Made by a program: the position numbers and the translations under genes. A stretch of DNA of 62,187 nucleotides from Thermoanaerobaculia bacterium. GTDB lineage: Bacteria; Acidobacteriota; Thermoanaerobaculia; Multivoradales; JBCCEF01. The notes below the pieces were generated by a model. The model saw nothing but the letters and a program-made list of their open reading frames with translations, ran no database searches and had not been told where the DNA came from. Each line of letters starts with the position of its first letter. The first letter of the stretch is position 1. The stretch is taken from NCBI GenBank assembly GCA_036259255.1, contig DATACC010000271.1:1-62187 (forward strand), read 5' to 3'. Positions 3,203 through 54,972 of the stretch are shown piece by piece.

Positions 3203-7977
<4,775 letters not shown>

Positions 7978-7981
<4 letters not shown>

Positions 7982-10900
7982 CGCACCCCCGCCGTGCGCC
8001 GCTGCCGGCGCAGCTCGCGCTGGCGCTCCAGGGCATCGCGCCGTCCCTCACCCCGCTCGCCCGCCGCCTCCGCCTGCTGCGCCGCCTCGCGAGCCGCCGC
8101 CGCGCCGCCGGAGCCGTCCTCCAGGTGGGCGACCAGCGAGGCCACCGTGGTGCGCCGGAACAGCTCGACCATGGTGACGTCGCGGCCGCAGCGCTCGCGC
8201 AGCCGCGTGGCCACCTGCACCAGCAGCAGCGAATGGCCGCCGAGGTCGAAGAAGTTGTCGTGCAGACCCACCCGTTCGAGCCGCAGCACGTCTTGCCAGA
8301 TACCGGCGACGGCGGCCTCCAGCTCGGTGCCCGGGGCCACGTAGTCGGCGGCCAGCTCCGGGCGCAGCGCGTCCGGGGCCGGCAGGGCGGACCGGTCCAC
8401 CTTCCCGTTGGCGTTCAGCGGCAGCGCCGCGAGCGACACGAAGGCGGTGGGCACCATCGCCTCGGGCAGCCTCTCCACCAGGAAGGCGCGCAACTCGCCG
8501 GGGCTCACCGGCTCGGCGACGCCCACCGGCTTGCCGGCAGCGGGCACCACGTAGGCGACCAGGCGGGCCTCGCCACCATCGTCGACGCGGGCTGTCACCA
8601 CCGCCTGGCCCACGCCGCCGTGCTGGCGCAGCAGCGCCTCCACCTCCCCCGTCTCCACCCGGAAGCCGCGGATCTTGACCTGACCGTCGGTACGGCCGAG
8701 GAACTCCAGGGCGCCGCCGGGCAGGCGGCGCGCCAGGTCGCCGGTGCGGTATAGCCTCCCGCCGGGGGTGGACGGATCGGGGACGAAGCGCTCCGCCGTG
8801 CGGCCCGGCTGCCCCAGGTAGCCACGGGCCACCCCGGCGCCCCCGACGTAGAGCTCCCCCGGGGCCCAGGTGGGCACCGGCTGCAGCGCGGCGTCCAGCA
8901 GGTGGACGCGGGCATGGGCGAGGGGCCGGCCCAGCGGCACCGTGGCGCTGCGGTGGCCCGGGCCGGAGTCACTCGGGGCTGGATGGCCCGGGGCGGAAGG
9001 GCCCGGGTCGGAAGGGCCGGGCGCGGCCTCCGCCGGCGCCGGCACGGGGTCGGCGAGCACCCCGACCGTCGTCTCGGTGGGTCCGTAGTGGTTGTAGACC
9101 GCCAGCTTCGGCGCCAGGGTGCGCACCCGCGCGGCCAGCTCCCAGCCGAGGGCCTCGCCGCCGAGCACCAGCACGCGGCGCGGCAGCACCCGGTCGGGAG
9201 CCGAGGCGGTGAGCAGCGCCTCGAGGTGGCTCGGCACGATCTTCAGGCAGTCGATGCCGTGCTCGCCGGCGTAGGCCGAGAAAGCCTCCGGGTCGGAGAT
9301 CCGCTCGGCGGGCACCACGTCGAGGCAGCCGCCGCCGCACAGGGCCGGAAACACCATGGTGTGGCCGAGGTCGGCGGCGAACGTCGAGACGATGGCGAAG
9401 CGGCCTTCCGGGGGCCAGGCGATCCGCTCGCCGACCGCCTGCACGTAGGCGGCGAGCTGGCGGTGCTCCACCGCCACCGCCTTGGGGGTGCCGGTGGAGC
9501 CGGAGGTGAACAGCAGGTAGGCGAGGCTCTCGGGATGCACCGTCACCGGGGCCTGCACCGCCGCCGACTCCTCGGCAGCGCCGGTCTCGTCGTCGTTCCC
9601 ACCGCGCCCGGCGTCCCCATCGTTCCCCGCGTCCCCGGCGTCCCCGTCCAGGCCGAGCACCTCCGCCGGCCCGTCGGTGAACAGGGCCGCCAGCTCCGGC
9701 GCCGCCAGCACGCGGCGAGCCCCGGAGGCGGCCAGCAAGGCATCGAGGCGCCGGCGCGGCTGGGCCGGATCGAGGGGCACGTAGGCGGCCCCCGCCTCGA
9801 GCACCGCCAGCAGGGCCACCACCAGCTCGGGCGAGCGCTCGAAGCAGATCGCCACCCGGTCCTCCGGCGCCACTCCGGCGCGGCGCAACGCGGCGCCGGC
9901 GCGGCGCACCCGGGCGGCCAGCTCGCCGTAGCGCAGCACGCGAGCCCCGCACGCCACCGCCGGGCGCTCCGGGTGCAGGGCCGCCTGCCGGCGGATCTGC
10001 TCGGGGACGCTCACCGGCGCCGCCACCGAGCCCGCCGCTCTGGCGTTCGGTTCTCCGGGGCTCGGCTCTCCGGCGCTCGGTTCTCCGGGGCTCGCCACTC
10101 CGAGGCCCGGCTCCAGCTCTCGGCGCTCCTCGTCGCTCAGCACGCAGGCGTCGGCAACCGTCCGCGGACTGCCGGTGGCGAGGTCGCGCAGCAGGACGGT
10201 GAGCTGCCCCAGGGTGCGGCGGGCGTCGGGCGGGTCGATGCGGCGCGGATCGTAGGCCAGCTCGAGGCGGGGGGGCGCGGCCTCCGGCCCGGCGGCCTGG
10301 CGGCAGACCAGGTGCAGGGTGAACGGGTCGACGAACGAGACCTCCTCGCGGGGCCGCAGGCGGGCCCCACCCAGGCGCAGGGGCGCCGGCTCGCGGCGCA
10401 GCTCGAAGCCGAGCGGGAAGCAGGGCGGCACGCCGTCTTCGCTCTGCGCTCCGTCGCCGGCGGCCTGCCAGCTCCAGTACTCCTGGCTGGCCCGGGCCTC
10501 GGCCACCACCTCGGCGGCCCGGCGCACCAGCTCCTGCGGCGTGCGGCGGCCGTCGACGGTCACGGCCAGCGGTACCACCTTGGCGAGGAGCCCGGGCAAG
10601 CTCTCCAGCCCCTCGTACTCCCGGCCTTCCAGGGTGATGCCCAGCACCAGCTTGTCGCGGCCGGTGAGGCGGCCGAGCAACACCCGCCAGGCGGCAAGCA
10701 CCAGGTCGGCGAGGGTGGCGCCCGCCCGGCGGGTCAACGCTTCCCCGCCGGCCGCGACCGCGGCGTCCAGCTCCACCGCCACCACCGCCGGCGCGAATGG
10801 TGCCGCGGGGTCCGCGGCGCGCTCGCACGGCAGGCGCAGGCGCGCCGCCTCGGCGAGATCGAGGCGGCCCCAGGCCTCGGCCTCCACCGCCGCCTCGTCG

Positions 10901-11511
10901 GATTCGAGCAGGCCGTTCTGCCACTCGGCGAGGTCGGCGTACTGCATCGGCTCCTCGTCGTCCCCGGCCGCGGCGGCGGCATCCTCCGGCGCCGCCTCGC
11001 GAACCAGCTCGCGCACCAGGGCCTCCAGGCCGGCGCGGTCGAGGTGGAGCGGCGAGGCGCTCAGCACCAGCAGCCCGTGGCCGGGAGCGAGCCGGGCGAG
11101 GCACACCCGCAGAGGCGGGCCAGCCTCTGCCATGCCGCCGTCCGCCACGCCCTCCCCGTCGAGGAACTCGCCGCGGGCTTCGGCGAGGAGCCGGTCGACG
11201 GCGGCGGCGCGGTCCTCCACGGGCAGGGTTTGGAGATCGCGCTCCTCGACCTCCGGCACCCGGGCGGGAGCGACCGCCTGGAGCGGCATCGTCAGGCCCG
11301 GGAAGGAGCGCAGCTCGGTGCGCAGGATCTCGTGGCGGCCACCGACCACGGCCAGCGCGCGCCGCAGGAGTGCTGCGTCCAGCTCCCCCTCCACGTCGAA
11401 GGCCCGCAGAACCCGCCCGGGGCTCCGGTGCCGGCCGAGGTGCCAGGCGCGGCGCTGCTGGGGAGAGAGGCGGAACCCGCCCCCGCCCGCCGTCGTCGGC
11501 TCGCTACCCAT
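7978..11511 (-). CDS. NRPS: interface (dead C) domain-A(Asp)-PCP
   Basis: Start MGSEPTT...GFRLSPQQ at 11511 with GGAG RBS (track ORF over-extended). C-like domain has SPLHLDRAG instead of HHxxxDG. A code DLTKVGHVGK (TFAADLGHT, CLKIVPSH, NHYGPTETTVG). PCP FFDLGGHSL. Confidence 0.92.
10047..10091. repeat. 15-bp tandem repeat x3 (SPGEP/SAGEP/SPGEP)
   Basis: tcggttctccggggc / tcggctctccggcgc / tcggttctccggggc. Confidence 0.85.
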
Positions 11512-11525
11512 GGTGGACTCCTGGC

Positions 11526-17179
<5,654 letters not shown>

Positions 17180-17183
<4 letters not shown>

Positions 17184-18268
17184 CGCGCCGACCCGACCGT
17201 TTCCAGCCCGAGGCCCCGCGCCGCGGCGTCGGACTCCTCCCGCGAGCACGGCTCGGCCATGCCGACCACCACCAGCCGCTCGCCGGCGTAGGGCTGGCGG
17301 GCGTGGGCCACCGCCATGTTGTCGAGCATCAGCACGTCGCCCTCCTGCCAGGGAAAGACGATGGTCTCCTCCTGGTAGAGCCGGCGCAGATCGTCGAGAA
17401 CCTCCGCCTCGATGGGGGTACCGTCGCCGTAGTAGGTGTTGTAGGGCAGGTCCTCCTCCGGGAACTCGGCGAGCAGCGACTCGCGCACCTGGGGATCGAG
17501 GGTCGAGACGTGGAAGAAGGTGGCGTGGTTGAACCACGCCGGCTCGCCGGTGCGCGGATTGACCGCCACCGCGTCGCGGACCTGCCGGGTGCGCAGCCGG
17601 TCGCCGCCCTTCCACTCGGTCTCGATGCCCTTGTCGCGGCAGTAGCGGTCCACCTCCGCCGGGTCGTCGGTCTGGAAGGCGTTCTGCCAGCGCAGGCCGA
17701 AGCCGTCGTTGTAGTTGCGCACGTAGAGCACCTTGCGCTCGGCGAAGCGCTGGCGCACCGCCGGGTCCACCCGCTGGTAGATCCGGCAGGTGTCGGCGAT
17801 GGGCGTCTCGCCGCCGCGCTCCGGCGCCTTCAGGCAGCAGAAGTAGATCTTCAGCGGCCAGGTCACCCAGTAGGTACCCTCGTTGTGCAGGAAGATCCGC
17901 TGGTCCGACGGGTAGTCCGTGGAGGTGTACACCTGCTCGCCGACCTCGTGGCGAGGCGACGAGCGGTCCCGGTACTCGAGGCGTTCGCCGTCGGAGCTGG
18001 CCTCGACGAAGCCCTGGAACTCGTCCACGGTGCGCACGCCGAAGCCGCGAAACAGCAGCGCCCGGTGGGCGAGCAGCAGCTCGTCGACCTGGCGCCGGTT
18101 GCTGTGCGCCCAGGCGGCCAGGTCCATGCCCGGCACCGAGGGCTCCACCAGCACCGGCATGGGGCGGTCGGCCAGGAGCGGCCGTGTGCGCACCAGTGCC
18201 TCCTCCGACACGCTTACCGTCTTGCGCCGCAGGGCGCCGAAATCCTTCAGGCTCGGTAGGTTGTTCAT
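17180..18268 (-). CDS. Stand-alone TauD/TfdA-family Fe(II)/2-oxoglutarate dioxygenase (amino-acid beta-hydroxylase, SyrP-like)
   Basis: YTSTDYP...IFLHNEG...GGETP...WFNH...WQEGDVLMLDN...AHARQPY. AGGAG RBS before the ATG at 18268; alternative ATG at 18283 overlaps the upstream stop. Confidence 0.92.
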
Positions 18269-18279
18269 GGTTCTCCTTG

Positions 18280-23051
<4,772 letters not shown>

Positions 23052-23055
<4 letters not shown>

Positions 23056-26000
23056 TCGGCCGTCGCTCCGCCGCGGCCGGTGCCGGGGCCGGCGCCGGCC
23101 AGGCGGCCCGCCTCCTCGTCGCAGAGCAGCTCCAGCTCGGCGAGCTGGCGCTCGATGTCGTCGTCGCCGGTCCCCGGCACCGGCCCGGCGAGCCGGGGGC
23201 CCTCGCCGTCCTCGCCGCCGCCGCCGGCGAGGACGGCGTCCACCGCCGCCGCCAGGGCCGCCACCGTGGGCGCCTCGAACAGCACGCGCAGCGGCAGATC
23301 CACCTGTAGCGCCTCGCGCTGGCGCGAGAAGACCCGGGTGGCCAGCAGCGAGTGGCCGCCGAGCTCGAAGAAGTTGGCGTCGACGCTCACCCGGTCGTGG
23401 CCCAGCACCTCGGCCCAGATCCGGGCCATCACCTCCTCGGTGGGCGTGCGCGGAGCCACGTGCTCGCGGCGCGCCCGCTCGCGCGCCTCGTCGAGGGACG
23501 GGAGCGCGGCGTAGTGGATCTTGCCGTTGAGGGTCAAGGGGAGCCGCTTGAGGTGGACGAACAGGTTCGGCATCGTCTCCTCGAGGATGCTGCGGCGCAG
23601 CTCCTCGCGAAGCTCGGCGACCTCGATCTCGTGTCGCGACACGTAGTAGGCCACCAGCACGTCGCGGCCGTTGCCGTCGCGGGCGAGGGTCACGACGCTG
23701 TCGCGCACCTGGGGCACCCGGTTGAGGGCCAGCCGGATCTCGTTGAGCTCCACCCGGAAGCCGTGGTACTTCACCTGGTCGTCGGCCCGGCCGAGGAACT
23801 CGATGCTGCCGTCCGGCAGCCGCCGGGCGAGATCCCCGGTGCGGTAGCGCCGGCCCCCGGGCTCCGGCGAGAAAGGATCGGGGAGGAAGCGGTCGGCGGT
23901 CAGGCCCGGGCGGCGGAAGTACCCCCGGGTCACCGGCTCTCCGCCCACGAACACCTCCCCGGCAACCCACTCCGGCACCGGTTCGCCGCGCCGGTCGAGG
24001 AGCACCACCCGGGCATTGGCGATGGGGCGGCCCAGGGGCACCGAGGCGCAGCGCGGGTCCAGACCGCCGGGCTCGACCCGGTGGGTGAGCACGCCCACCG
24101 TGGTCTCCGAGGGGCCGTAGTGGTTGTACACCACGCAGTCCGGCGCCCGGCCCGCCAGCTCCTCCACCCACGCCGGCCGCGACGCCTCGCCCCCGAGCAC
24201 CAGGCGTCGCGCCGGCAGGGCCAGCTCCGGCCGGGGCTGGTCGAGCAGCGCCTCCAGGTGGCTCGGTACGATCTTCAGGCAGTCGATGCCGTGGGCGGTG
24301 AAGTACTCCCCCACCGCCTGGGCATCGGCCAGGCGGTCCAGCGACAGCACGTGGAGGCAGCCTCCGGTCGACAGGCTGGGGAAGATCGCCGTGTTGCCGA
24401 GGTCGGCGGCGAAGGTCGACACGTTGGCGTAGGAGGCTCCGGCCGGCAGGTCGAGCCGCTCGGCGACGGAGGTCACGTAGTTGACGAGCTGGCGGTGCTC
24501 CACCGCCACCCCCTTGGGCCGGCCGGTGGAGCCGCTGGTGAAGACGACGTAGGCCAGGTTGCCCGCCGCGGCGCCGGATTCGACCGGCGCTGAGCTCTCG
24601 AGCGCCACCCGGTCCCAGTCGTCGTCGATGCGCAGCCGGCGGCCCGGCCAGCCGGCCAGCCGCTCCTCGACGGCCGCCTGCACCAGCACCACCGGCGCCT
24701 CGACGTCCTCGAGCAGGAAGCCGAGGCGCTGGGGCGGCTGCCACGGCTCCAGCGCCACGTAGGCGCCGCCGGCCTTCATCACGCCGAGCAGAGCAACCAC
24801 CAGCTCGGCGCCGCGGTCCATGCACAGGGCCACCGGCACGTCCGGCCCGACGCCGAGGCCCTGCAGGTGGCGGGCGAGCTGGTTGGAGCGCTCGTCGAGC
24901 TCGGCAAAGGTGATCGAGGTTCCCTCGAACACCACCGCCGGCGCCGCCGGCGTGCGCCGTGCCTGGGCCTCGAAGAGGTGGTGGAAGCAGGCCTCCCGCG
25001 GAAAGTCGGCAGCCGTGGCGTTGACCTCCACGAGCAGGTGCCGGCGTTCGGCCGCGCCGAGCAGGTCGAGGGCCTCGATGGGTGCCTCCGGCATCGCCAG
25101 GGCGCTCTCCAGGCAGACGATCCACCGGGCGAGCAGGCGCTCGGCGTCGGCGGCATCCACCCGGGAGGCGTCGTGGTGGAGGGTCGCCCGGAGGGCATCG
25201 CCCCGGCGCTCGCAGGCGAGGCGCAGAGCGAAGCGCTCCGTGGTCACCTGCCTGCCGACGATGCGCCAGCGCACGCCAGTCCCGCCGACCTGGGCCGGCT
25301 CCTCGGCGAGCTCGAAGGCGGCCGGCAGGGCCGCCTCGCCGGCGCCGTCGGAGCCCTCCCCGGCGAAGCCGTCGGCGTGCTCCCAAGCGGTATCGCGGGC
25401 CTGGCGCAGCATCTCGACGAGATCCGCCAGGCGGTGATCCCGCACCGGACGCACCCGCACCGGCAGCCAGCGGGCGAAGGGACCCAGGGCGTGTTCGAAC
25501 ATCTCGTGACCGCGGCCGTCCTCCGCCAGCGCCACCGTGGTCGATTCGGCACCGGTGGTGCGCCACAGCAGCGCGTGCCAGGCAGCCAGCAGCACCAGGC
25601 CGAGGTCTGCCCCGAGGCGCGCGGCGAGGGTCTCCGCCGCCGCCACGGTGGCGGGCTCCAGGCGGCGGCTCACCGCGTCCGGCGAGAACGGCGCCGCGCC
25701 CGGCCGCTCCCAGGGCAGACGCCAGCCGGCGGCGGCGGCGAGCTCGCGCTGCCAGTGCTCGCGGCTCTCGGCCTCGGCGTTCTCCAGCAGCGAGCTCTGC
25801 CACTCGGCGAACTGGACGTAGCGCACCGCCGGCGCCTCGCCGGCCTCGCCGGCATGAACGGCGGCCAGGTCGTGGACCAGGTTGTCCAGGGTGCGGCTGT
25901 CGGCGCACACCGGCGGCAGGGCGAGCAGCAGCAGGTGGCGGCCCGGCCCGGCCGGCAGCAGGCGGGCCGAGAGCACCGGGCCGGTGGCCGGGTCGAAGGA

Positions 26001-26333
26001 TGCACCGTCGCGCAGCAGCTCGGCGATGCGCTCGGCGGTGGGCTCCTCGGCGGCGGCGGCCGCGGCCGTCTCGTCGCTCCAGGCGGCGGCGCCGGATTCG
26101 GCCATGGCCTGCACGGGGAAGCGCATGCCCGGCAGGCGGTGGAAGCTGGTGCGCAGGATCTCGTGGCGCGCCACCACGCCGTCGAGGGCCCGGGCCAGCG
26201 CGGCGGGCACCACCTCCCCTTCCAGCAGCACGGCGCAGCGGGCGCCGTAGGCACCACCCTCGCCACGCCACGCCTGCCAGGCCCGTCGCTGCTGCGGCGA
26301 CAGTCGAAATCCCTGCAGATCCTCGAACGACAT
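23052..26333 (-). CDS. NRPS: interface domain-A(Asp)-PCP
   Basis: MSFEDLQGFRLSPQQ with GGAG 6 nt upstream (alternative starts 26351, 26369). Dead C motif LPPVCADSR. A code DLTKVGHVGK. PCP FFELGGHSL. Confidence 0.9.
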
Positions 26334-28046: not shown

Positions 28047-31000
28047 TCAGGCCGAAGCGTGGTGCAGCTCGGCGCAGCGCACGGTGTCGACGGAGACCAT
28101 GTCGCCCATGGCCACCAGGATCTTGCGGGGGCCGGCGAAGGGGTACCGGCCGTGGGCGGTCAGCATGTTGTCGACCAGTACCAGGTCCCCCTTCTGCCAC
28201 GGGAAGGTCACCGCGTTGCGGCGGTACAGCTCGACGATCTCCAGCACCAGCTCGTCGGGAATCGGCGAGCCGTCGCCGAAGTAGACGTGGCGCGGCAGGT
28301 CCTCGACAGCGAACAGCTCGAGCAGCGGACCCCGATCCTCCTCCGGCAGGCAGGCGATGTGATGGGCCTGGATCTGGTTGAAGAACACCTTGGCCCCGGT
28401 GCGCGGGTGGCGGGCCACCGCCGGGCATACCTTGCGGGTGCGCAGGCCGCCGTCGGCCTTCCACTCGCACGCGATGTCGGAGCGCCGGCACCAAGCCTCC
28501 ACCTCCGCCCGGTCGGAGGTGTGGAAGAAGTCGCGCCAGTCGACGTCGAGGCCCGGCGTGTAGTTGCGCACGTACATCACGCCGAGCCGCTCGAAGCGGT
28601 CCCGCACCTCGGCATCGAGCAGCTCGTAGATGCGGCGGCAGTCGACCAGGGGCGTCTCGCCTCCTTCGAGCGCCGGCTGCACGCAGAGGAAGAGCTGGCG
28701 CAACGGCCAACTGTCGAGCTGGGAGCTCTCGTTGTGGAACCAGATGGTGCGGTCTGGCGGATAGGGGGTGGAGGTGTAGACCTTTCCCGTCACCGCGTCG
28801 TGGGGCAGGTCGCCGTACTCGTCGAACAGCTCGCCGGCCACCGCCTTGGCCACTGCCTCGAACCGCTCGGCGGTGTCGACGCCGAAGCCGCGGAACAGCA
28901 CTGCCCCGTGCTCGTGGAGCCGGGCTTCGAGCACCTCGTGGTTGCCCGCCACCCACTCCGCGAGGTCCACCGCCTCGGCAGCCGGCCGCACCATCAGCGG
29001 CGCGGCGGCACCGGGCACACCGGGGAGCGGCTCCATCTCGACCAGCCGGCTGCGCGAGAGCTGGACGGCCGCCGGCTCCACGTTCATGAACTTGGCGAAG
29101 TCCGCCTGCTTGCGCTGCTTCTTCTCGGTCACGTCTTGCTTCCTTTCGCTCTCGGCGAGATGTTCGAGCTGGCTCAACCGCGCCCCCGGCCGCTCGGCGA
29201 CGCTCGCCAGCAGCGTCGTGAGGTGCCGCGTCAGGGTGCGGATGCCGGGGGCATCGAAGAGGTCGGTGCTGTACTTCCAGGTGGCCTCGAGGCCGTCGCC
29301 GGTCTCGACCAGTACCAGCACCAGGTCGAATTTCACGGTGCGGTTGTCGATCTCCAGCGCCTCGAGCTCGAGCCCCGGCAGCTCGAGGCGCCGGCGGTCC
29401 GGGTTCTGCAGCACCAGCAGGTACTGGAACAGCGGCGCCCGGCCGGCGGTGCGCTCGGGCTGCAGCTCCTCGACCAGGCGCTCGAAGGGCAGCTCCTGGT
29501 GGGTGAAGGCGCCGACGGCGACCTCCCGCTCGCGGGCCAGCAGGTCGCGGAACGTCGGATCGCCGGCAAGGTCGGTGCGCAGCACCAGGACGTTGACGAA
29601 GAAGCCGATGAGCCGCTCCGTCTCCACCCGGTTGCGGTTCGCCACGTCGGTGCCGATGGCCACGTCCTCGACTCCCGTGTAGCGGTGCAACAGGGCCTTG
29701 AAGGCGGCGGCGAGCACCATGAACAGGGTCGCCCCCTCCGCCCGCCCGAGGTCGCGCAGGGCACGGGTGAGCTCGGCCGTCAGCCGGAAGCTGTGCTGCG
29801 CGCCGCCGTAGGACGGCCGCTCCGGCCGAGGGCGGGCGAAGGGGAGCTGGAGCTCCGGCGGCGGCGTGGCGAGGCGGCGCCGCCAGTAGGCCAGGTGGCC
29901 CTCGAGCACGTCGCCGGTGAGCCAGCGGCGCTGCCATGCGGCGTAGTCGGCGTACTGCACCGGCAGCGCTGGCAGCGGCGAAGGCTCGCCGCGGGAGAAC
30001 GCCGCATAGAGGACCGCCAACTCCTGCGTCAGGACGCCCATCGACCAGGCGTCGCTGACCACGTGGTGGATGTCGAACAACAACAGGTGTTCGGCCGGAT
30101 CGCGATGCACCAGGGCGGCGCGCAGCAACCGGCCCGCCGCGAGATCGAAGGCCCGGCGGCCCCAGCGCCGCAGCAGGCGCTCGGATTCCGCCGCCGCGAC
30201 AGGCTCCGGCACGCTCCCGAGATCGATCCTCGGCAGCGGCACCGGCCGTGCCGGCTCCACCACCTGAAACGGCTCGCCACCGGCCTCCCGGAGACTCGTG
30301 CGCAGCGCCTCGTGACGACGAACGATCTCTGTCAGCGCCCGCTCCAGGGCGGCTGCGCCGGTGGCCCCCAGGGGGCCGCGAAGCCGCAGCGCCCGCGGCA
30401 CATTGAAGGCGCAGCTCTGGGGATCGAGCTGCTGGAGGAACCACAGGCGCTGCTGGGCGAAGGACAGCGGCAGACGCCCACGACGCCCCACCGGAACCAG
30501 GGGTGGAGCGGCACCCCGCTCGCCGGCGCCGAGGGCGGTCTCGACCCGCCGGGCCAGGCCGGCCAGGGTGGCGTCCTCGAACAGCGTGCGCAGCGGCAGC
30601 TCGATGCGGAACGCCTCCTGAATCCGGGCGGCGAGGCGGGCGGCCAGCAGGGAGTGGCCGCCGAGAGCGAAGAAGTCGTCGGCGGGGCCAATCTGCTCGA
30701 CGCCCAGGATCCGGCTCCAGATCGTCGCCAGCAGCGCCTCCACCGGACCCAGGGGCCGGTCTCCCCCGCCGCTCGCCGACGCCTGCTCGGGCTGCGGCAG
30801 GGCGGCGCGGTCGAGCTTGCCGGTGCGGGTGCGGGGCAGGCCAGGCAGCGCCACGAACCAGGAGGGCACCAGGGCCTCCGGCAGGTGTCGGCGCGCGAGC
30901 TCGCGCAGCGCCGCGGGCGCCGGCTCGTCGCGCCCCGCCGGCACCCAGTAGGCTGCCAGCGCCTCGCGCACCGGCACCACCGCCACCTCCCGCACCGCCG

Positions 31001-33797
31001 GGTGGGCGGCGAGCACCGCCTCGATCTCGTCGAGCTCCACCCGGACGCCGCGCACCTTGACCTGGCGGTCGCGGCGGCCGAGAAACTCGAGCTCGCCGCC
31101 GCCCCCCCAGCGCACGAGGTCGCCGGTGCGGTAGAGCCGCGCCCCCGGCGTCCCGCCGGGAAACGGATCGGGCAGGAACCGCTCGGCGGTGGCCGCCGGC
31201 CGGCGGTTGTAACCGCGGGTCACCCCGGCGCCGGCGATGGCCAGCTCGCCGGCCACTCCCACCGGCAGCGGAGCGCCCCCCGCGTCGAGCACGTAGAAAC
31301 GCACGTTCTGGATCGGCCGCCCGATGGGCGCCGGACCGCCCTCCCCCGCCGCCGCCGGCAGGCGCCAGAAGCTGGAGGTCATGGTGCATTCGGTGGGGCC
31401 GTACTGGTTGACCACCGCGACGGCGGGGCCGAACAGGCGGCAGGCGGCGGCGCCGTCGGCCCGGTGGAGGACCTCCCCGCTCAGCACCAGAGTGGCCAAC
31501 GGCACCCACGGCAGCTCCCCCTCCGGCACCGAGCGCACCAGCTCCCGGAACAGGGTCGGTACCATGCCGAGCACCGTGTCGACGCCGTGGCGCCGCAGGG
31601 CCGCCAGCAGGGCCCGTGGATCCCGCGCCTCGGCCTCGGCCGGCAGCACCACCCGGCCGCCGGCCGCCAGCGGGCCCAGGGTGTCGCGGATCGAAGCGTC
31701 GAAGAACGGCGCCGCCACCTGGAGCACCACGCTGTCGGGGCCAACGCCGTACTCGCGCAGCACGAAGTCGAGGTAGTTGGCGGCGCCGCCGTGGGTGCTG
31801 AGCACGCCCTTCGGCCGGCCGGTGGTGCCGGAGGTATAGGTGACGTAGGCGAGGCCCGCGGGGTCGACCCGGACCTCGGGCCGGTCCTCCGGCGCCGCCG
31901 CCAGGAGGGCCGCATCGCGGTCGAGGAGGACTACCGCCCGCCCGGCCGAGGCGGCGGCGGGCAGGGCGGCCAGCAGGCGCTCCTCGCTCACCAGCACCCG
32001 GGCTCGGGCGTCGTCGAGCACGAAGGCGAGCCGCTCCCCCGGCGCCGCGAGGTCCAGCGGCAGGGCGGCACCGCCGGCCTTGAGCACGGCGAGCAGGGCG
32101 GCGACCAGGTTCGGACCGCGCTCCAGGGCCAGGGCCACCGGCACCTCCGGGCCGACCCCGAGGCGGCGCAGGTGGTGCGCCAGGCGGTTGGCCCGCCGGT
32201 CCAGCTCGCCGTAGGGCACGGTGACCTCACCGGCCACCAGGGCCACCGCCTCGGGCCGGCGCGCCGCCTGCTCCTCCACCCGGCGATGCAGGCCGGCCTC
32301 GGGCAGGTTTCCGCCGGACAGGGATACGTCGGGCAGGGCTTCGCCGGACCGAGCCTCGCCGGGAAGGGGCCGGGCGGTATCGTTGAAACCTTCCAGCACC
32401 AGCCGCCGCTCGGCCTCGCCGAGCAGCGCCAGGGTGGTGGCGGCGGCCTGTGGGCGGCGGACGGCGTCGGCGATCAGGGCGCTCCAGCCGGCGGCCAGCC
32501 GCTCGGCCGTGGCAGCGTCGCAGCGCGCCGGGTCGAAGCGCAGCGCGGCGGCGAGACCGTCGCCCCGGCGTCGGCACACCAGCTCCACCGCGAAGGGCTC
32601 GCCGAGCACCCGCTGCTCGAGCACCGCCACCCGCAGGTCCCGGACCACCGTCTCCGGCGCCCACTCGTCCCAGGCAAAGCCGGTGGACAGGCGCAGCGGC
32701 CCGTCGCCCTGGCCGGCGGCACCGGGGGCCTCCGGGTCGAAGGAGGTCTGCCAGCCGTCGGCCTCGCGGGCGGTGGCGGCGAGGCGGGCGGCAAGGGTGC
32801 CCAGGGTGGCGCGCGGATCGATCCCCACGCGCGTCGGCAGGCAGCGGGCGAAGGGACCGAGACCGTGGCGCAGATCCTCGTGGGGGCGGCCGTCGGCGGC
32901 GCGGCCCAGCACCACCTCGTCCTCGCCGGAGCGGCGCGCCAGCAGCAGCGCCCAGGCGGCGGCGGCGACGGCCGGCAGCGGCGCTCCGGCCGCCGCGGCG
33001 AGGGCCTCCAGGCCGGCCCGGGTGTCGGCGGCGAGGTCTACGGTCACCGTGTCCACCGCCCCCGTGTCTTCCGCCCCCGTGCCCGCGGCCCCCGTGCCCA
33101 CCGCCCCGGCTACGGCTCCGGCCTCGCCCCGGCCGGCGAAGGGGAAGGCCTGGAGCGGCAAGGAGGCGAGGCCGAGGCCGCGCCAGTACGCCTGCGCCTC
33201 GGGGGCGGGCTCGTCTTCGAGCAGCTCGTTCTGCCACTCGGCGGCGTCGGCGTACTGCAGCACCTCGTCGTCGTCACCCCCGCCCTGGTTCGGCTCCGCG
33301 TACTCCCGGACCAGCTCGCCGGCCAGCAGGCGCAGGCTCCAGCCGTCGGCGCACAGCGCCGGCCAGCCGAGCAGCAGGGCGTGCCGGCGCTCGCCCAGGG
33401 CGACGAGCACCGCGCGGGGCACCAGGGCGGCGGCGCCGGGGCGGGCGTCCTCGCCGAGGCGGCGCTGCAGCTCGGCGCGCTGCTCGCCGGCGGCGAGGGG
33501 GGCGAGGTCCGCCGTCTCCAGGGCCGGCGTTTCGAGGGCCGGTGTTTCGGGGGCCGAGCCGCCCACCTCGCCGATGCGTTGCACCGGCAGCCGCACCCCG
33601 GGCATCCGTTCGAAGCCGGTGCGCAGGATCTCGTGGCGCGCGACGACCCGGCCGAGAGCCGCGGCGAGACGGGCGCGGTCGAGCTCGCCGTCGAGCCGGA
33701 GCACGAGCTGGGCGCGGCACGGGGCGCCCTCCTCGTGCAGCCGCCACAAGCGGCGCTGCTGCGGCGACAGCCGGAAGCCTTGCAGAACCTCGGTCAC
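28047..33797 (-). CDS. NRPS: interface domain-A(unassigned)-PCP-C-TauD dioxygenase, 1916 aa
   Basis: GTG start VTEVLQGFRLSPQQ. Dead C motif WPALCADGW. A code about DARGVSQMTK. PCP GGHSL. C HHVVSDA. C-terminal TauD with WFHNES...GGETP...DNMLTAHGRYPF. Confidence 0.92.
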   Translation of the reverse strand: MTEVLQGFRLSPQQRRLWRLHEEGAPCRAQLVLRLDGELDRARLAAALGRVVARHEILRTGFERMPGVRLPVQRIGEVGGSAPETPALETPALETADLAPLAAGEQRAELQRRLGEDARPGAAALVPRAVLVALGERRHALLLGWPALCADGWSLRLLAGELVREYAEPNQGGGDDDEVLQYADAAEWQNELLEDEPAPEAQAYWRGLGLASLPLQAFPFAGRGEAGAVAGAVGTGAAGTGAEDTGAVDTVTVDLAADTRAGLEALAAAAGAPLPAVAAAAWALLLARRSGEDEVVLGRAADGRPHEDLRHGLGPFARCLPTRVGIDPRATLGTLAARLAATAREADGWQTSFDPEAPGAAGQGDGPLRLSTGFAWDEWAPETVVRDLRVAVLEQRVLGEPFAVELVCRRRGDGLAAALRFDPARCDAATAERLAAGWSALIADAVRRPQAAATTLALLGEAERRLVLEGFNDTARPLPGEARSGEALPDVSLSGGNLPEAGLHRRVEEQAARRPEAVALVAGEVTVPYGELDRRANRLAHHLRRLGVGPEVPVALALERGPNLVAALLAVLKAGGAALPLDLAAPGERLAFVLDDARARVLVSEERLLAALPAAASAGRAVVLLDRDAALLAAAPEDRPEVRVDPAGLAYVTYTSGTTGRPKGVLSTHGGAANYLDFVLREYGVGPDSVVLQVAAPFFDASIRDTLGPLAAGGRVVLPAEAEARDPRALLAALRRHGVDTVLGMVPTLFRELVRSVPEGELPWVPLATLVLSGEVLHRADGAAACRLFGPAVAVVNQYGPTECTMTSSFWRLPAAAGEGGPAPIGRPIQNVRFYVLDAGGAPLPVGVAGELAIAGAGVTRGYNRRPAATAERFLPDPFPGGTPGARLYRTGDLVRWGGGGELEFLGRRDRQVKVRGVRVELDEIEAVLAAHPAVREVAVVPVREALAAYWVPAGRDEPAPAALRELARRHLPEALVPSWFVALPGLPRTRTGKLDRAALPQPEQASASGGGDRPLGPVEALLATIWSRILGVEQIGPADDFFALGGHSLLAARLAARIQEAFRIELPLRTLFEDATLAGLARRVETALGAGERGAAPPLVPVGRRGRLPLSFAQQRLWFLQQLDPQSCAFNVPRALRLRGPLGATGAAALERALTEIVRRHEALRTSLREAGGEPFQVVEPARPVPLPRIDLGSVPEPVAAAESERLLRRWGRRAFDLAAGRLLRAALVHRDPAEHLLLFDIHHVVSDAWSMGVLTQELAVLYAAFSRGEPSPLPALPVQYADYAAWQRRWLTGDVLEGHLAYWRRRLATPPPELQLPFARPRPERPSYGGAQHSFRLTAELTRALRDLGRAEGATLFMVLAAAFKALLHRYTGVEDVAIGTDVANRNRVETERLIGFFVNVLVLRTDLAGDPTFRDLLAREREVAVGAFTHQELPFERLVEELQPERTAGRAPLFQYLLVLQNPDRRRLELPGLELEALEIDNRTVKFDLVLVLVETGDGLEATWKYSTDLFDAPGIRTLTRHLTTLLASVAERPGARLSQLEHLAESERKQDVTEKKQRKQADFAKFMNVEPAAVQLSRSRLVEMEPLPGVPGAAAPLMVRPAAEAVDLAEWVAGNHEVLEARLHEHGAVLFRGFGVDTAERFEAVAKAVAGELFDEYGDLPHDAVTGKVYTSTPYPPDRTIWFHNESSQLDSWPLRQLFLCVQPALEGGETPLVDCRRIYELLDAEVRDRFERLGVMYVRNYTPGLDVDWRDFFHTSDRAEVEAWCRRSDIACEWKADGGLRTRKVCPAVARHPRTGAKVFFNQIQAHHIACLPEEDRGPLLELFAVEDLPRHVYFGDGSPIPDELVLEIVELYRRNAVTFPWQKGDLVLVDNMLTAHGRYPFAGPRKILVAMGDMVSVDTVRCAELHHASA
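33048..33107. repeat. 15-bp imperfect tandem repeat x4 within interface domain
   Basis: cgtgtccaccgcccc / cgtgtcttccgcccc / cgtgcccgcggcccc / cgtgcccaccgcccc. Confidence 0.8.
33513..33557. repeat. 15-bp imperfect tandem repeat x3 (APET/PALET/PALET)
   Basis: cgtctccagggccgg / cgtttcgagggccgg / tgtttcgggggccga. Confidence 0.8.
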
Positions 33798-33804
33798 GGC
33801 GCCC

Positions 33805-36800
33805 TCAGGCCTCCAGCTCGCTCAGCCGCACGACACCGCCGCCCATCGCCACCAGCACCCGCCGCGGCGGGGTGAACGGCATGCGGCCGTGGGCGGTCAG
33901 CGTGTTGTCCAGCATCAGCACGTCGCCCTTCTGCCACGGGAAGGAAACCATTGAGTCGCGCACCACCTGGCGCACGTGCTCGAGCTCCGCCGGGTCCAGG
34001 GGCGAGCCGTCGCCGAAGTAGGCGTTGATCGGCAGCTCCTCCTCCGAGGTGGTGGCGAGCAGGGCGTCGGCGAGGTCGCCGAGGTTCGACGGGTGCCACT
34101 GGTCGACCTGGTTGAACCACACGGGCTCGCCGGTCTTCGGATGACGGATGGTGGCCGGACGCACCTGGCGGGTGGTCAGGCCGCCGTCGTCGCGCCAGCG
34201 GAAATCGATGCCGCCCTCGCGGCAGTAGGCCTCCACGGTGTCGCGGTCGGCGGTCTCGAACACCGTCTGCCACGACAGGCCGGCGCCGCGGTCGCCGTGC
34301 AGGTTGCGGGTGTAGAGGACGCCCTTCTCGGCGAAGCGGCTGCGCACCGCCGGGTCGATCTGCTGCCACACCTTGCGGCTGTCGGCGATCGGCGTCTCGC
34401 CGCCCTGCTGCGGCTCGACGTCGCAGTAGAAGAAGATCTTGCTCGGCCACTTGTGGGCGTAGGACAGCTCGTTGTGGAGCGACACGAAGTACTCCGCCGG
34501 GTACTCGGTGGAGGTGTAGACCTTGTCGCCCACCATCACCCGCGGCGACGAGCCCTCGACGTAGTTGGCGAGCTCCGGCGTCACCGTGTTGACGAAGCTC
34601 TCGAAGGCCGCGGGCGAGGCGACGGCGAAGCCGCGAAACAGGATGCCGCCGTGGACCAGCAGATCCCGCTCGACCTGCTCGGTGTTGCTGCGCACCCAGG
34701 CGGCGAGGTCCACGTCGTCCAGGTTGGGCCGCAGCACGAGGGGCAAGGTCGAGCCGTTGAGCGCTTCGCGGCGCACCAGCTCGTCCTGCGCGAGGTTGAC
34801 GCTGCGGCGCCTGGTGATCTTGAGCTTCTTCAAGTTGGAGGTGCTCACTTCGTCCTGCCTGCTCATTCGCTTCTCCGTTTCTCGGGTGCTGAGGGCGTCC
34901 ACCAGGACGCCGAGACGGGTATCGGGGGCGGTGACGGCGCGCTCGGCCAGCACCAGCAGCTCCTCGCGCAGCCGCGCCATGGTGGCTGCCTCGAAGAGGT
35001 CGGTCTTGTACTCGAAGGCGCCGGCCAGCCGGTCGCCGGCCTCCCCCATGTAGAGGGTGAAGTCGTACTTGGCCGTGCCATGCCGGACCGGCAGCCGCTC
35101 CAAGGTGAGCCCCGGCAGGGCAGCGGGGTCGGCGGGCGCGGCGTTCTGGTAGTTGAATACCACCTGGAACACCGGGCTATGGCCCGGATGGCGCTCGGGC
35201 CTGAGCTCCTCGACCAGCTTCTCGAAGGGCAGATCCTGGTGCGCGTAGGCACCCAGGGTGGTCTCGCGCACACGCGCCAGCAACTCACGGAACGTCGGAT
35301 CGCCGGACAGGTCGGTGCGCAGGGCCAGGGCGTTGATGAAGTAGCCGATCATGCCGTCGAGCTCCGGCCGGCTGCGGCCTGCCACTGGCGCGCCGACCAC
35401 CAGATCGAGCTGCCCGGTGAGGCGGTGGAGCAGCACCTGGAGCACGGCGAGCAGCACCATGAACGGGGTCGCTCCCTCGCGGCGGGCGAGCTCGCGCACG
35501 CGGGCCGACGACTCGGGCGTCAGGGCCACCGGCTCGATGGCCCCGCGGGCGCTCGGCCGTGCCGGGCGCGCCCGGTCGGTGCGCAGGTCGAGCACCGGAA
35601 GCGGCGGCGCGAGACGCCGGCGCCAGTAGCAGAGCTGGGCCGCCAGCAGATCCCCGGTGAGGTATCGGCGCTGCCAACCGGCGAAGTCGGCGTACTGGAT
35701 CGGCGGTTCCGGCAGCGGCGAAGGCCGCCCTGCCACGAAGGCCCCGTAGAGGGCCGCCAGCTCGCCGATCAGCACGCCCGCCGACCACTGGTCGCCGACG
35801 ATGTGGTGCATCGTGAACCAGGCGGCGTGTTGCTCGGCAGCCAGGCGCACCAGCAGCGCGCGCACCAGGGGGCCCCGGGCGAGGTCGAAGGGCCGCCGCG
35901 CATCGCGAGCGGCCGTGAGCAGCATCTCGGGCCGGCGACGCCCTGCCGGCAGGGCGGTGAGGTCCACCCACGGCAGCGGCCAGCGGCCCGGGGGCGCCAC
36001 ATGCTGCACCGGACCCTCGCCGAGCAGCGGAAAGCTGCTGCGCAGCGACTCGTGGCGACGCACCGTCTCGTCGAGGCTGCGCTGCAGCGCGCGGGTGTCG
36101 AGCCAGCCGGTCAGGAGCAAGCCGGCAGACTGGTTATAGAGCGGCGCGTCGGGCTCCAGGCGAGCCAGGAACCACTGGCGCTCCTGAGCGAAGGACAGCG
36201 GCAGGTCGCCGTCCCGCGGCAAACGCTCGATGGGCGGCAGCAGCGCGTCTCCACCGCCACCGAGCTGCGCCACGTGGGCCGCAATCCCGGCCACGGTGGG
36301 CTGCGCGAACAGCGTCGCGGGGGGCAAGTCCACGGCGAGCGCGGCGCGCAGCTCGCCGATCAGGCGCAGGGCGAGCAGCGAGTGGCCGCCGAGCTCGAAG
36401 AAATCATCGTCCAGGCCCACCCGGTCGATGCCCAGCAGCCGCTGCCAGATCTCCGCCACCGCCCGCTCGGTGCCGTCGCGCGGCGCCACGTAGACCGTCG
36501 ACAGGTCCGGCCGCGGGTAGGCCCCGGACGACGCGGCCCCAGGCGACGCGGCCCCGGTCAACGCCGCCCCGGCCGCTGCGGCGGCCCCTACGGTCCCGCC
36601 GCCGGCGACGTGGCCGAGCGGATCCACCACCACCTCGCACCCTCCGTCCCACGCCAGAACCCGGTGAAGAACCTCCACCGCATGCTCGGGCTCGACCGGG
36701 ACGCCGGCACTCCCCAGCCAGTGGATCGACACGGTGGGTCCGGCGCCCCGGGCGCTGCGGGCGTGGGCTGCGGCGTCGAGGGCCGCACCCGCGGCGGCGG

Positions 36801-39800
36801 CCACGAGGGGTTGCACGGCGAGCGGCCCGAGCATTGGGCCAGCGGTGGCCGCGGGAGCAGAGGCTGAATCCGGAGACCAGAAGGCCAGGAAATCGAGCTC
36901 CCCGCCGCCCAATGCCTCGCTCAGAACGGCGGCGCCCCGCACTCTGGCGGCATACGCCCGCTCGGCCTCGTCCCTGCCCTTGCCCGCGTCCTCGCCCTCG
37001 CCGTCCAGCGGGCCGTTCACGGCCTCGCCGGCGGCGTGCACGGCGCCGTGGATCGAGCCGAAGCTCTCCCGCGCCCGGGCCACCACCGCCGACACCTGCT
37101 CGGGGCTGGTGACGTCGGCGGTGGCGGTGAGCACCGCGGCACCGAGAGCCTCGAGCTCCTGCACCCGGCCCGGAGGCGCCGGGAACCGGTCGACGAGCAC
37201 CAGCCGCGCACGGACCCGGCGCGCCAGGCCGCGAGCGACGGCGAGGCCCGTCTCGCCCCACGCACCGGTGACCATGTAGACACCCCGCCCACGCAGCACC
37301 GCGCCGCCGGCGGCCTCGTCGAACGGCCCCGCGACGAGCTCGCGAACCCAACGGCGGCCGTGGCGGTAGGCCACTACCGGATCAGCGGGCGGGGCGGTCA
37401 TCTCGGCGGCGAGTCTGTCGGCAGCCAGCCCGTCGTCGGTCGCCATTCCGCCGGCGACCTCCGGGCCGAGGTCCACCGCCTGGCAGGTGAAGCCCGGCAG
37501 TTGGCCGGGGATCGCCGCGCAGGCTCCGAGCACCGCCACCTGCTCCGCCGTGAGGTCCTCGTCGCCGAAGACCGGCCGGGCGCCGGCGGTGAGCACCCGC
37601 AGGTCGATCGGCGCGCCGGAGGCGGCGGGATCGACGTTCGCGGCGAGCACCTGGACGAGGAGCAGCAGGCTGTCGAGGCCCGGAGGGAGGGGACCGTCCC
37701 CCGCCGCCTCCCGCCGGCCGCAGGACGCCGCAGCACCGAGGCCGCTGGCGTGGACCACGGTGCTCGGCATGTCTCCGGCAGCCCGCAGCACGGCCATCAA
37801 CCGGTGGTGGTCGGCGAGCCGGCGGAGATCCATCCGGTAGCGATGCTCCCCGGCCGCGGTGAAGCCTTCCCCGGCCACCACCGAGACCACTCGCCGCCCG
37901 GTCTCGCGCAGACGCCGCACCAGCGCGGCACCGACGCCGGAGGCATCCTCCACCACCAGCCAGGTGCCGGTGTCCTCGCCGGCCGGGCGCGGCCGGGGCG
38001 ACACCGTCTGCCGCCACACCGGGACCCGGATCCGGTCCGCCGGCCGGCGGTGCTCCGGCGCTGCCGGCACCGGGGAGGCGGCGGCCCGGGAGTCCTCGAT
38101 CCAGTAGCGGCGCCCTTCGAAGGGGTAGGTGGGCAGCGGCACCCGCCGGCGCCGGCGCCGGTCGTGGAAGGCGGTCCAGTCCACCCGCGCGCCGGCCAAC
38201 CACAGGCGGCCCAGCGTCGCCAGCAGGTGCCGGTGGACCGAGGCTCCCGGGGCCCCCTGCGGCAAGCCGGCGAGCGCGCCCGCGGCCTCGGCGCCCGGCC
38301 CCAGGGAACCGCCCGACCCCACCTCGAGAAGCACGGCCCCCATCTGCTGCAGGCTCTCCCAGGTGCCCTGGGGCCAGGATGCCGGCCGACCTAGCCGGGC
38401 CGCCCAGGCCGCGGCATCGGTGGCCTCCTCCGGGGAGAGCCAGGTACCGGTGGCGCCGGACATCAGCCGCAACCGGGGGGGAGCCAGGCGCAGGCGGCGC
38501 AGCGCGGCCTCCGTGGGGCGGGCGACCACCGAAAGGGCCTCCTCCAGCGAGAGCACGCCAGCCACGCAGGCGGCCACGAGCTCCCCCACCCCCTGGCCGA
38601 CGACGCCCTCGGGCCGCAGCCCCCACGAGATCCACAGCCGCGCCAGGGCGTGCTGCACGACGAGCTGGACCGCGTCGAGCTGGATCGTGTCGCCGTCGCC
38701 GGCCGGCTCCGGGCCGCCGACGGGACCCCCGCCGTGGAGGACCGCCTGGAGGTCGATTCCGAGCAGCGGCCCCAGGATGCCGGCGCAACGGTCGATCTCG
38801 GCCCGCAGCACCGGCTCGGCGGCGGCCAGTTCTGCCGCCATCGCGGGGTACCCACCGCTCCGCCCCGGGAACAGGAAGACCACCGGCAGGTCGCTGCGCT
38901 CGGCGGTACCGCTCCAGGCGTGCTCCGGATCATCGCCCGCCAGGGCGGCCGCGCCGGCCGCGAGATCCGGGCAGAGAACCACGCGGCGGTGCCGCAGCTC
39001 CTGCCGCCCGACCTGCAGGGTGAAGGCGACGTCCTCGGGCGTCAGCTCCGGGTGGTCGAGCAGGTACCGGTGCAGGTTGGCGCTCGCCACCTGCAGCGCC
39101 ATCGGCGTGGCGGCGGACACTGGCAACAGGTGCCACGGCCGCGGCGGATGGAGATCCGGCGACGGCGGCGGCAGCACCGGCGCCTCCTCCAGGACGACGT
39201 GGGCGTTGGTGCCGCCGATGCCGAAGGAGCTGACCCCGGCCCGGCGCGGGCCCTCCCCCGGCCACGGGCGCAGCGTGGTGTTGACGTAGAAGGGGCTGGC
39301 GGCGAAGTCGATCGCCGGGTTGGGGGCCGAGAAGTTGAGGCTCGGCGGCAGCTCGCGGTGCTCCAGCGCGAGCACCGCCTTGATCAGCCCCGCCGCACCG
39401 GCGGCGCAATCGAGGTGACCGATGTTGGACTTCACCGAGCCCAGGGCGCAGAAGCCCCGGTCGGCCGTCCCGGCACGAAAGGCACGGTTCAGCGCCGCCA
39501 CCTCCAGGGGGTCCCCCAGGGGGGTGCCGGTGCTGTGGGCTTCGACCAGGGTGACGCTGCGCGGCTCCACCCCGGCGGTCGCCAACGCGGTGGCGATCAC
39601 CTCGGCCTGCCCCTCCTCGCTCAAGGCGGTGAACCCGGCCTTCTGCGCACCGTCGTTGTTGACTGCCGCGCCGCGCAACACCGCCCGCACGGAGTCGCCG
39701 TCGGCCAGCGCGTCCTCCAGCCGCTTGAGCACCACGATTCCCAGCCCGCTGCCGAAGACGCTGCCCCCGGCGTCGGCCGAGAAGGCGCGGCAGTGGCCGT

Positions 39801-40468
39801 CCGGCGACGCCAGGCCGCCCGGGCGGTGGAAGTATCCGGCGGTCTGGGGCACCCGCACCGCCACGGCGCCCGCCAGCGCCAGGTCGCACTGGTACGCCAG
39901 CAGCCCCTGGGCCGCCAGGGAAACCGCCACCAAGGCGGTGGAGCATGCGGTCTGCACCCCGATACACGGACCTCGCAGGTCGAGCCGGTAGGCGACCTGC
40001 GTGGCCAGGTAGTCCTTCTCGTTGCCGATCAACGTCTGCAGCGCCTCCAGGCCCTCCTGGGCCTTGGGGCCGGAGGCGAAGCGAAGCCAATAGGTGTTCA
40101 GCCGTGCTCCCGCGTAGACACCGATCCGCTCCCGGCAGCGCCGCGGGTCGTAGCCGGCATCCTCCAGGGCCTCCCAGGCCGACTCCAGGAACAACCGCTG
40201 CTGCGGGTCCATCAGCTCCGCCTCGCGCGGGCTGTAGCCGAACAGGGCGGCGTCGAACAGATCGATGTCGTCGAGCACCGGCGCCGCCTTGACGTAGGCC
40301 GGGTCCGCCAGCACCTCCGGCGGCACGCCGGCGGCGGCCAGCTCGTCGTCGGAGAACCGGCGCACCGACTCGACGCCGGCCGCCAGGTTGCGCCAGTACT
40401 CCCCGGCGTTGCGGGCACCGGGGAAGCGGCAGGCGAGGCCGACGATGGCGATACTGTCGAGCAGCTCG

Positions 40469-40476
<8 letters not shown>
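33805..40476 (-). CDS. PKS-NRPS hybrid: KS-AT(inactive)-KR(degenerate)-ACP-C-TauD dioxygenase
   Basis: Start MRDELLDSIAIVG at 40476. KS TACST/EAHSTGT/KSNIGH. AT GQGVG, with the catalytic Ser lost and the domain shortened. KR lacks the Lys/Tyr residues. Carrier GGHSL. C HHIVGDQ. TauD SLHNEL...DNTLTAHGRMPF. Confidence 0.92.

Positions 40477-54972
<14,496 letters not shown>

Follow-up and report, generated by a model that had tools for sequence, protein, structure and literature searches.

A hybrid polyketide synthase module with relic acyltransferase and ketoreductase domains in a Thermoanaerobaculia bacterium, a candidate non-extending relay

The window analysed here is the entire 62,187-base contig DATACC010000271.1 of a Thermoanaerobaculia bacterium, which belongs to a fragmented metagenome-assembled genome (MAG) of 4.07 Mb in 364 contigs that is approximately 80% complete. 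It carries a hybrid polyketide synthase-nonribosomal peptide synthetase (PKS-NRPS) assembly line, and the gene under study, gene C, encodes a PKS module located directly downstream of a thiazole-forming module. The ketosynthase (KS), carrier (T), condensation (C) and TauD-family hydroxylase domains of gene C are conserved, its acyltransferase (AT) and ketoreductase (KR) survive as degenerate relics (AT0 and KR0), and the dehydratase (DH) of its intact orthologs is absent. The relics have diverged about three times faster than the corresponding ortholog domains while the rest of the protein has kept the ortholog pace. The module is predicted, with a little more than even confidence, to act as a non-extending relay whose product would be two carbons shorter than that of the orthologs.

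Domain content of gene C

The open reading frame of gene C covers positions 33805-40653 on the minus strand, with the true start being the ATG at 40476, which overlaps the stop of the preceding gene B by 8 nt (ATGCGTGA). Residue numbers are counted from this Met. The features of the gene are as follows:

33805-40476, minus strand: gene C, 2223 aa, KS-AT0-psiKR/KR0-T-C-TauD, a single open frame with no stops
39187-40476, minus strand: KS, with Cys178 in TACST (39937-39951), His314 in HSTGT (39523-39537) and His354 in NIGHL (39412-39426)
38887-39186, minus strand: KS-AT linker domain (KAsynt_C_assoc/CurL-like/RhiE-like linker), identified by Pfam
38107-38886, minus strand: AT0, with GQGVGE at 38581-38598 and the post-AT motif YPFEGRRYW kept at 38101-38127
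37342-38034, minus strand: structural (psi) KR subdomain, moderately conserved
36718-37341, minus strand: relic of the KR catalytic subdomain (KR0), with TGAWGETG at 37246-37269, AARVRG at 36934-36951 and a scrambled Ser/Tyr/Asn segment at 36853-36882
36703-36732, minus strand: junction VSIHW/LGSAG, placed at about 36717, where a DH-bearing segment of approximately 330 residues found in both orthologs is absent
36262-36516, minus strand: carrier (T) of the peptidyl carrier protein (PCP) type, with the Ser of GGHSL kept (36376-36390, residues 1363-1367)
34867-36225, minus strand: C domain, with HHIVGDQ at 35788-35808, evolving at the ortholog rate
33808-34764, minus strand: TauD-family Fe/2-oxoglutarate hydroxylase fused to the C domain, with 80-81% identity to both orthologs

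Pfam analysis of the gene product identifies the KS N-terminal (1.6e-68) and C-terminal (1.1e-41) domains and the KR (2.7e-21), together with PP-binding, Condensation and TauD domains. The Acyl_transf_1 match (4.6e-15) covers only profile positions 1-114 of 319. In alignments to the orthologs described below, the GQGVGE of AT0 sits where GHS(V/I)GE is expected, and an in-frame deletion of 84 residues with its junction near 38520/38521 removes the stretch from ARGRLMQ through HAFHS to MEPALE. Lost with it are the Arg that binds carboxylate, the entire small subdomain and the catalytic His of HAFHS, and against the solved structure 8xjy the same gap corresponds to chain residues 653-732. None of the elements of a functional AT (GHSxG Ser, Arg, HAFH His and small subdomain) is therefore left in gene C, in agreement with the first-pass annotation of this DNA, which had read the AT as GQGVG without Ser and with the small subdomain apparently lost. 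A shifted but intact GHSxG site is ruled out: whether aligned with the orthologs or with solved ATs, GQGVG falls exactly at the GHSxG position, and the deletion is visible.

The same annotation had reported the loss of the KR Lys and Tyr, and the damage extends to the cofactor loop, Ser and Asn. The loop reads TGAWGETG in place of TGGWGGxG, AARVRG replaces APKVRG (Lys to Arg), and an unrelated stretch with an insertion stands in place of FSSTIG...DY(S/A)AAN, leaving neither the NADPH loop nor the Lys-Ser-Tyr-Asn set of the ancestral module. These lesions are seen against the orthologs and against MlnE and PksJ, the best solved relatives of this KR. A compensated frameshift in the scrambled segment is ruled out, since no alternative frame gives the ortholog sequence. 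For the missing DH, it is ambiguous whether the segment was deleted in gene C or inserted in the orthologs, since gene C branches outside P0018 and P0021 in the KS tree and both KS-AT-KR-DH and KS-AT-KR orders are common among relatives.

The carrier retains the Ser needed for phosphopantetheine attachment. The carriers of the PKS modules in gene C (36262-36516) and gene I (3203-3500) are PCP-like (FFELGGHSLL) rather than acyl carrier protein (ACP)-like, and in gene C the motif is preceded by YVAPR. A PCP-like carrier is likewise present in the intact orthologs, where it must be loaded by a cis-AT. The linker between the C and TauD domains (window 34764-34900; RETEKRM-S/I/V-RQ-D/E-E...NLKKLKIT) is conserved in both orthologs, so the fusion predates their split and is not recent.

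Intact orthologs in two syntenic clusters

When the AT-KR region was searched against 5.8 billion proteins, the protein itself was returned, followed by P0018 and P0021, which are 43-45% identical over this region and much more similar to gene C outside of it. Both are organized as KS-AT-KR-DH-T-C-TauD and feature GHS(V/I)GE, HAFHS, APKVRG, FSSTIG...DY(S/A)AAN and the DH motif HxxxGxxxxP. The DH follows the KR catalytic subdomain in these proteins (KS-AT-psiKR-KR-DH-T), an order shared by 18 or more of the 120 best homologs; the textbook cis-AT module has the DH before the KR. The metagenomic clusters of P0018 and P0021 (the latter encoded at 10001-17989 of locus L003) are syntenic with the window for the following genes:

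54972-47878, minus strand: gene A, KS-AT-DH-KR-ACP-C
40469-47881, minus strand: gene B, interface-like C domain (without HHxxxDG), adenylation (A) domain, PCP, heterocyclization (Cy) domain, A domain with embedded oxidase (Ox) and PCP, which is the thiazole module upstream of gene C
33805-40476, minus strand: gene C
28047-33797, minus strand: gene D, interface-like C, A, PCP, C and TauD
after gene D: B12 radical-SAM (rSAM) gene

The Cy-A-Ox-PCP module of gene B is shared by the three clusters. Identity to L003 is 64% end to end for gene B, 64% for gene D and 78% for the rSAM gene. Because the same gene is intact in two syntenic clusters, the lesion is specific to the lineage of the window. No closer relative with the same lesion was found among the 5.8 billion proteins (at most 45% identity), genome contigs (at most 41%) or forty related genomes (at most 43%).

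Rates of evolution differ between domains

Rates were compared across three taxa (gene C, P0018 and P0021), and dN/dS was calculated from the DNA of one ortholog (L003). The KS of gene C is 77-78% identical to those of the orthologs (80% between the orthologs themselves), with corresponding values of 64-65% (62%) for T, 71-72% (70%) for C and 80-81% (78%) for TauD. These contrast with 49-52% (67-71%) for the AT and 48-51% (65%) for the KR catalytic subdomain. Private substitutions show the same pattern, with 69 in the AT of gene C against 21 and 24 in P0018 and P0021, and 47 against 13 and 19 in the KR, while T, C and TauD together have 69 against 84 and 80 (contrast with AT, p 8e-12; with KR, p 3e-8).

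Root-to-tip lengths from the trio ancestor were taken from rooted maximum-likelihood trees with outgroups. For gene C, P0018 and P0021 respectively, they are 1.04, 0.27 and 0.44 for AT; 1.14, 0.26 and 0.51 for KR; 0.21, 0.20 and 0.25 for KS; 0.31, 0.30 and 0.22 for C; and 0.18, 0.11 and 0.26 for TauD, with the T length of gene C inside the ortholog range. AT0 and KR0 have thus evolved approximately three times faster than the ortholog AT and KR and have accumulated about one substitution per site. Pairwise dN/dS against L003 is 0.65 for AT0 and 0.66 for KR0, compared with 0.31 for KS, 0.30 for C and 0.25 for TauD (range 0.25-0.43 over KS, T, C and TauD). A crude omega for the branch leading to the window is 0.97 for AT0, 0.94 for KR0 and 0.21-0.38 for the other domains; since the calculation takes dS to be equally divided and applies NG86 at high third-position GC content, only the contrast between domains is firm.

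The long branches of AT0 and KR0 and their omega near 1 indicate that the lesion is old rather than a recent defect of one strain, dating to roughly the time at which the lineage separated from the orthologs. The ortholog rates of KS, T, C and TauD indicate that the gene C protein has remained in use since the lesion arose, and a dead pathway is unlikely. The first-pass annotation had named a recent, strain-specific lesion absent from homologues as something that would count against its reading. It is indeed absent from P0018 and P0021, in which AT, KR and DH are intact, but a recent origin does not fit relic branches three times longer than those of the orthologs beside domains that are still constrained.

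The KS domain

The KS has the Cys, His and His of a functional cis-AT elongation module, with HSTGT replacing HGTGT; all three residues had been noted earlier and are seen in the alignment as Cys178, His314 and His354. It keeps 89 of the 93 columns that are at least 95% conserved. The private changes at such columns are G204A (AGGV), P285L (TAPS) and G315S (HGTGT), compared with no changes in P0018 and one in P0021. The HSTGT variant occurs in 0 of 147 homolog KS motifs. These substitutions are suggestive only.

In a tree of 159 KS domains, which contains no reference trans-AT KS0 sequences and so shows nearest relatives only, the KS of gene C forms a clade with the two orthologous KSs of complete cis-AT modules (support 1.0), in which it is the outgroup to P0018 and P0021. 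A comparison of hybrid and KS0 clades had been envisaged for this domain, and the tree does not place it in a KS0 group and gives it a normal branch length. An initial indication of faster KS evolution from private-substitution counts (1.6x, p 0.014) was withdrawn, as the rooted trees show it to be an effect of topology.

Related modules with a degenerate AT

Eight further modules in the homolog set (P0010, P0016, P0026, P0041, P0049, P0052, P0066 and P0122) have a degenerate AT behind an intact KS, with no Ser and no intact HAFHS, and with motifs such as GEGSGS, GTGYGL and GSGVGE. The KR is intact in seven of these AT0 modules and none was detected in P0122, while a sibling module with an intact AT is present in the same polypeptide in all eight. 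The AT0 modules with an intact KR must still extend using the shared AT, which suggests that one AT for two modules is a recurrent design in the family of gene C. Related PKS proteins from acidobacteria and actinobacteria that combine a dead AT with a live one hint that AT sharing may be a general habit of the family. The module of gene C is alone among the AT0 modules in having a dead KR and no sibling AT.

Search for a loading AT

No free AT is present on the 62 kb contig, where a six-frame search with PF00698 gives three hits that are all inside PKS genes. The first-pass annotation had seen no trans-AT gene in the window, and extending the six-frame search to the 4.07 Mb assembly gave only two other hits, FabD on contig C122 (324.7 bits to TIGR00128) and a divergent AT on contig C115. 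The latter has 338 residues, reads GFSLG and keeps the Arg and His. No ortholog of it was found in 20 related genomes, and its metagenomic homologs, which are 54-66% identical, are always in one cassette with no NRPS nearby.

The cassette (C115 4307-8204, designated L002, with counterparts L097 and L098) encodes hypothetical proteins, a TauD-like protein, the AT, in some cases an APH protein, two short-chain dehydrogenase/reductase (SDR) proteins, a KS, an ACP, a DH and an AMP-ligase. Its TauD gene is gamma-butyrobetaine-hydroxylase-like, the APH is of the kinase type and the DH is FabA/ApeI-like. Overall it resembles a type II fatty acid synthase (FAS)/PKS-like pathway of the aryl-polyene-like kind, and it is missing from the 20 related genomes. 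The C115 AT was rejected as a linked loader because its homologs sit in this conserved, NRPS-free cassette of another pathway. Apart from FabD and this AT of an unrelated pathway, the search of the assembly yielded no free AT. None was found encoded with the cluster, although absence is unproven given that the contig ends at position 1 and the MAG is approximately 80% complete.

Proposed function of the module

The first-pass annotation had offered two options for this module, either borrowed malonyl or a non-extending relay. This framing holds and both options are possible, with the relay favoured here. Gene C would descend from a complete KS-AT-KR-DH-T-C-TauD subunit that lost malonate loading when its AT was deprived of the Ser, His, Arg and small subdomain. 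The KR would then have decayed because it was left without a substrate, and the DH is absent. AT0 and KR0 would remain as in-frame spacer relics evolving roughly neutrally, since a stop or frameshift would destroy the T-C-TauD portion that is still needed. Loss of loading as a single cause would thus account for the AT decay, the KR decay and the missing DH together.

Gene B is predicted to hand a thiazolyl-acyl chain to gene C. The KS, under full purifying selection, most likely takes this chain from the gene B PCP onto its Cys and would move it to the T domain of gene C without extending it. In trans-AT PKSs, KS0 domains use this route from KS Cys to carrier. Direct carrier-to-carrier transfer would be an alternative route. 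The conserved T domain argues that the chain still passes over it. The C domain would then couple the chain to a hydroxylated amino acid on gene D, the acceptor being predicted to reside on the gene D PCP. The predicted junction is a thiazole-4-carboxamide, two carbons shorter than the thiazolyl-acrylamide predicted for the orthologs.

The relay is further favoured by the difference from the related AT0 modules, seven of which keep a KR and all eight of which have a sibling AT, and by the apparent lack of a linked free AT. The HSTGT motif also counts for it, although it is suggestive only. Programmed PKS module skipping, and skipping after the loss of a single domain, are documented (10.1101/560987; PMC6916388).

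Several points weigh against the relay. The KS keeps both His residues and has evolved no faster than the KSs of working modules, as decarboxylative condensation predicts, and AT0 modules that still extend are common among the relatives. Typical KS0 domains lack the HGTGT His, which gene C retains as HSTGT. FabD is encoded in the genome, and AT-less modules can be supplied by an AT of primary metabolism (10.1101/560987). The contig ends within the cluster at window position 1, and a trans-AT could be located further downstream. Finally, the deletion of the DH in gene C is formally ambiguous with its insertion in the orthologs.

The main rival, which is possible but less likely, is that the module does extend. 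Malonyl would be placed on its T domain in trans, either by FabD, by an AT beyond the contig end or by one of the cis-ATs of genes A and I, and a thiazolyl-beta-ketoacyl chain would be delivered to the C domain. In the absence of a working KR or DH, the unit would stay beta-keto. C domains that take beta-ketoacyl donors are ordinary in PKS-NRPS hybrids. The kept catalytic triad and normal branch length of the KS are consistent with this, as are the eight related AT0 modules with an intact KS, seven with an intact KR, that must extend by an AT from elsewhere. There is also precedent in the thalassospiramide lines, where an AT-less module is supplied by the primary AT of the host, and where complementation of an inactivated cis-AT restored 8-24% of the wild-type yield (10.1101/560987). 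However, the helper AT is in the same polypeptide in all eight modules and gene C has none, no cluster-linked AT was found, and the sole accessory AT is in a separate conserved cassette. The private G315S change beside the catalytic His (0 of 147) is a further point against extension. Trans-loading also needs separate tolerated losses of the AT, the KR and, if deleted, the DH together with a changed product, where the relay needs one cause. In one form of this rival, malonyl would reach the module across subunits from FabD or from a cis-AT of another protein of the line, that of gene A or of gene I. Gene C would then be a cis-AT module in mid-transition to trans-AT that forms a thiazolyl-beta-ketoamide unit, a reading that is about as likely as the rival itself.

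It is improbable that the line is broken or bypassed, either as a stalled and dying relic or with the gene B PCP feeding the C domain of gene C directly and the KS and T as passengers. Three domains of the module are dead or absent, and the lesion is unique among 5.8 billion proteins, so that no cross-strain conservation backs a function. Nevertheless, a passenger T or KS would be expected to decay like the AT, and the KS, T, C and TauD have evolved at ortholog rates (dN/dS 0.25-0.43) while AT0 and KR0 gained about one substitution per site. The 2223-codon frame is unbroken, and the neighbouring genes B, D and rSAM have kept their full length, with 64-78% identity to their orthologs. Assembly or binning artefacts are a very improbable source of the lesions even in a fragmented MAG of 364 contigs and approximately 80% completeness, as dozens of scattered substitutions and in-frame indels in diverged sequence cannot arise from mis-joins, and the 62 kb contig is continuous and carries, at one end, housekeeping genes with affinity to Thermoanaerobaculia.

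The surrounding gene cluster

The window has a G+C content of 75%. The MeaB housekeeping gene at its right end is 66-72% identical to those of Thermoanaerobaculia/Acidobacteriota MAGs. The hybrid PKS-NRPS line occupies almost all of the minus strand between 54972 and position 1, where the contig ends. After the rSAM gene it comprises more NRPS modules and a second PKS module, the latter encoded by the following gene:

7981-3203, minus strand: gene I, second PKS module

The contig end truncates the cluster within a C-A module (window 1-3202), so the release domain and downstream genes lie outside of the window. Genes A-E are 64-78% identical to L003, while the NRPS gene following the rSAM gene (gene F, window 18280-26271) is only 37% identical to L003 25364-27988. 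The downstream halves of the two clusters are not orthologous module for module.

The C-like domains at the N-termini of genes B (47881), D (33797) and H (approximately 11500) open with GFRLSPQQR and lack HHxxxDG. A true C domain ends each protein upstream of these N-termini except gene G, with TauD behind it in genes C and D, so that the modules are divided between the C domain and the interface-like domain. A literature search on Thermoanaerobaculia clusters found nothing specific to them.

Significance

A silenced module with domain relics is already a known kind of module, and the value of this case is in its intact counterpart and the clean contrast in rates. One and the same gene of the assembly line can be seen intact in two syntenic clusters and in a decayed state in the window, forming a natural before-and-after pair in which the rates tell the domains that ceased to matter (AT and KR) from those that still matter (KS, T, C and TauD). 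It is a clonable case for how a hybrid line tolerates losing an extension step, and it bears on whether a cis-AT-type KS with a full triad can act as a pure chain-transfer domain and on the origin of the AT remnants in trans-AT systems. It also predicts a two-carbon product difference between related clusters of uncultured Thermoanaerobaculia. For PKS engineering, gene C shows the linkers and relics that nature retains in a silenced module.

Comparison with known systems

The module resembles the non-elongating KS0-ACP modules of trans-AT PKSs, which likewise combine a KS and a downstream carrier without a working AT and show AT-like remnants behind the KS. The proposed job of such modules, in which the chain is loaded onto the Cys and handed on unextended, is the one predicted for gene C. 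Unlike the trans-AT KS0 domains, the KS of gene C keeps the His of the HGTGT-type motif and groups with extension-competent cis-AT KSs. Its relics are also recognizable as a decayed cis-AT and KR, and the visible part of the cluster has no trans-AT gene.

In epothilone biosynthesis, the Cy-A-Ox-PCP module of EpoB passes a thiazolyl thioester to the hybrid-type KS of EpoC, which makes a vinyl-thiazole-type unit. The Cy-A(Ox)-PCP of gene B and the KS of gene C are arranged in the same manner, and the KS, AT, KR, DH and carrier of the intact orthologs would match the output of EpoC. In contrast to epothilone, the extension machinery of gene C is dead, its carrier is PCP-like and followed by C-TauD, and the DH of the orthologs comes after the KR and not before it.

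AT-less or AT-inactive modules that are served in trans, as in trans-AT PKSs and the thalassospiramide Ttc and Ttm lines, share with gene C the combination of a missing or dead AT with a KS and carrier that are intact, and their carriers can be loaded by FabD-type enzymes. These modules keep their beta-processing domains, whereas gene C has a dead KR and no DH.

Module skipping has been described for the KR switch of aureothin/luteoreticulin (PMC6916388) and for PKS module 1b of thalassospiramide (10.1101/560987), and further examples are ACP-to-ACP skipping in a hybrid PKS and the case of myxochromide S (Thomas 2002 and Wenzel 2006, both cited by 10.1101/560987). As is predicted for gene C, the loss of one domain in such systems lets the chain pass without extension, and the carrier of the skipped module still participates. 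The skipped modules are otherwise intact or the skipping is partial, whereas gene C features an AT and KR that have long been decayed and has an intact ortholog for comparison.

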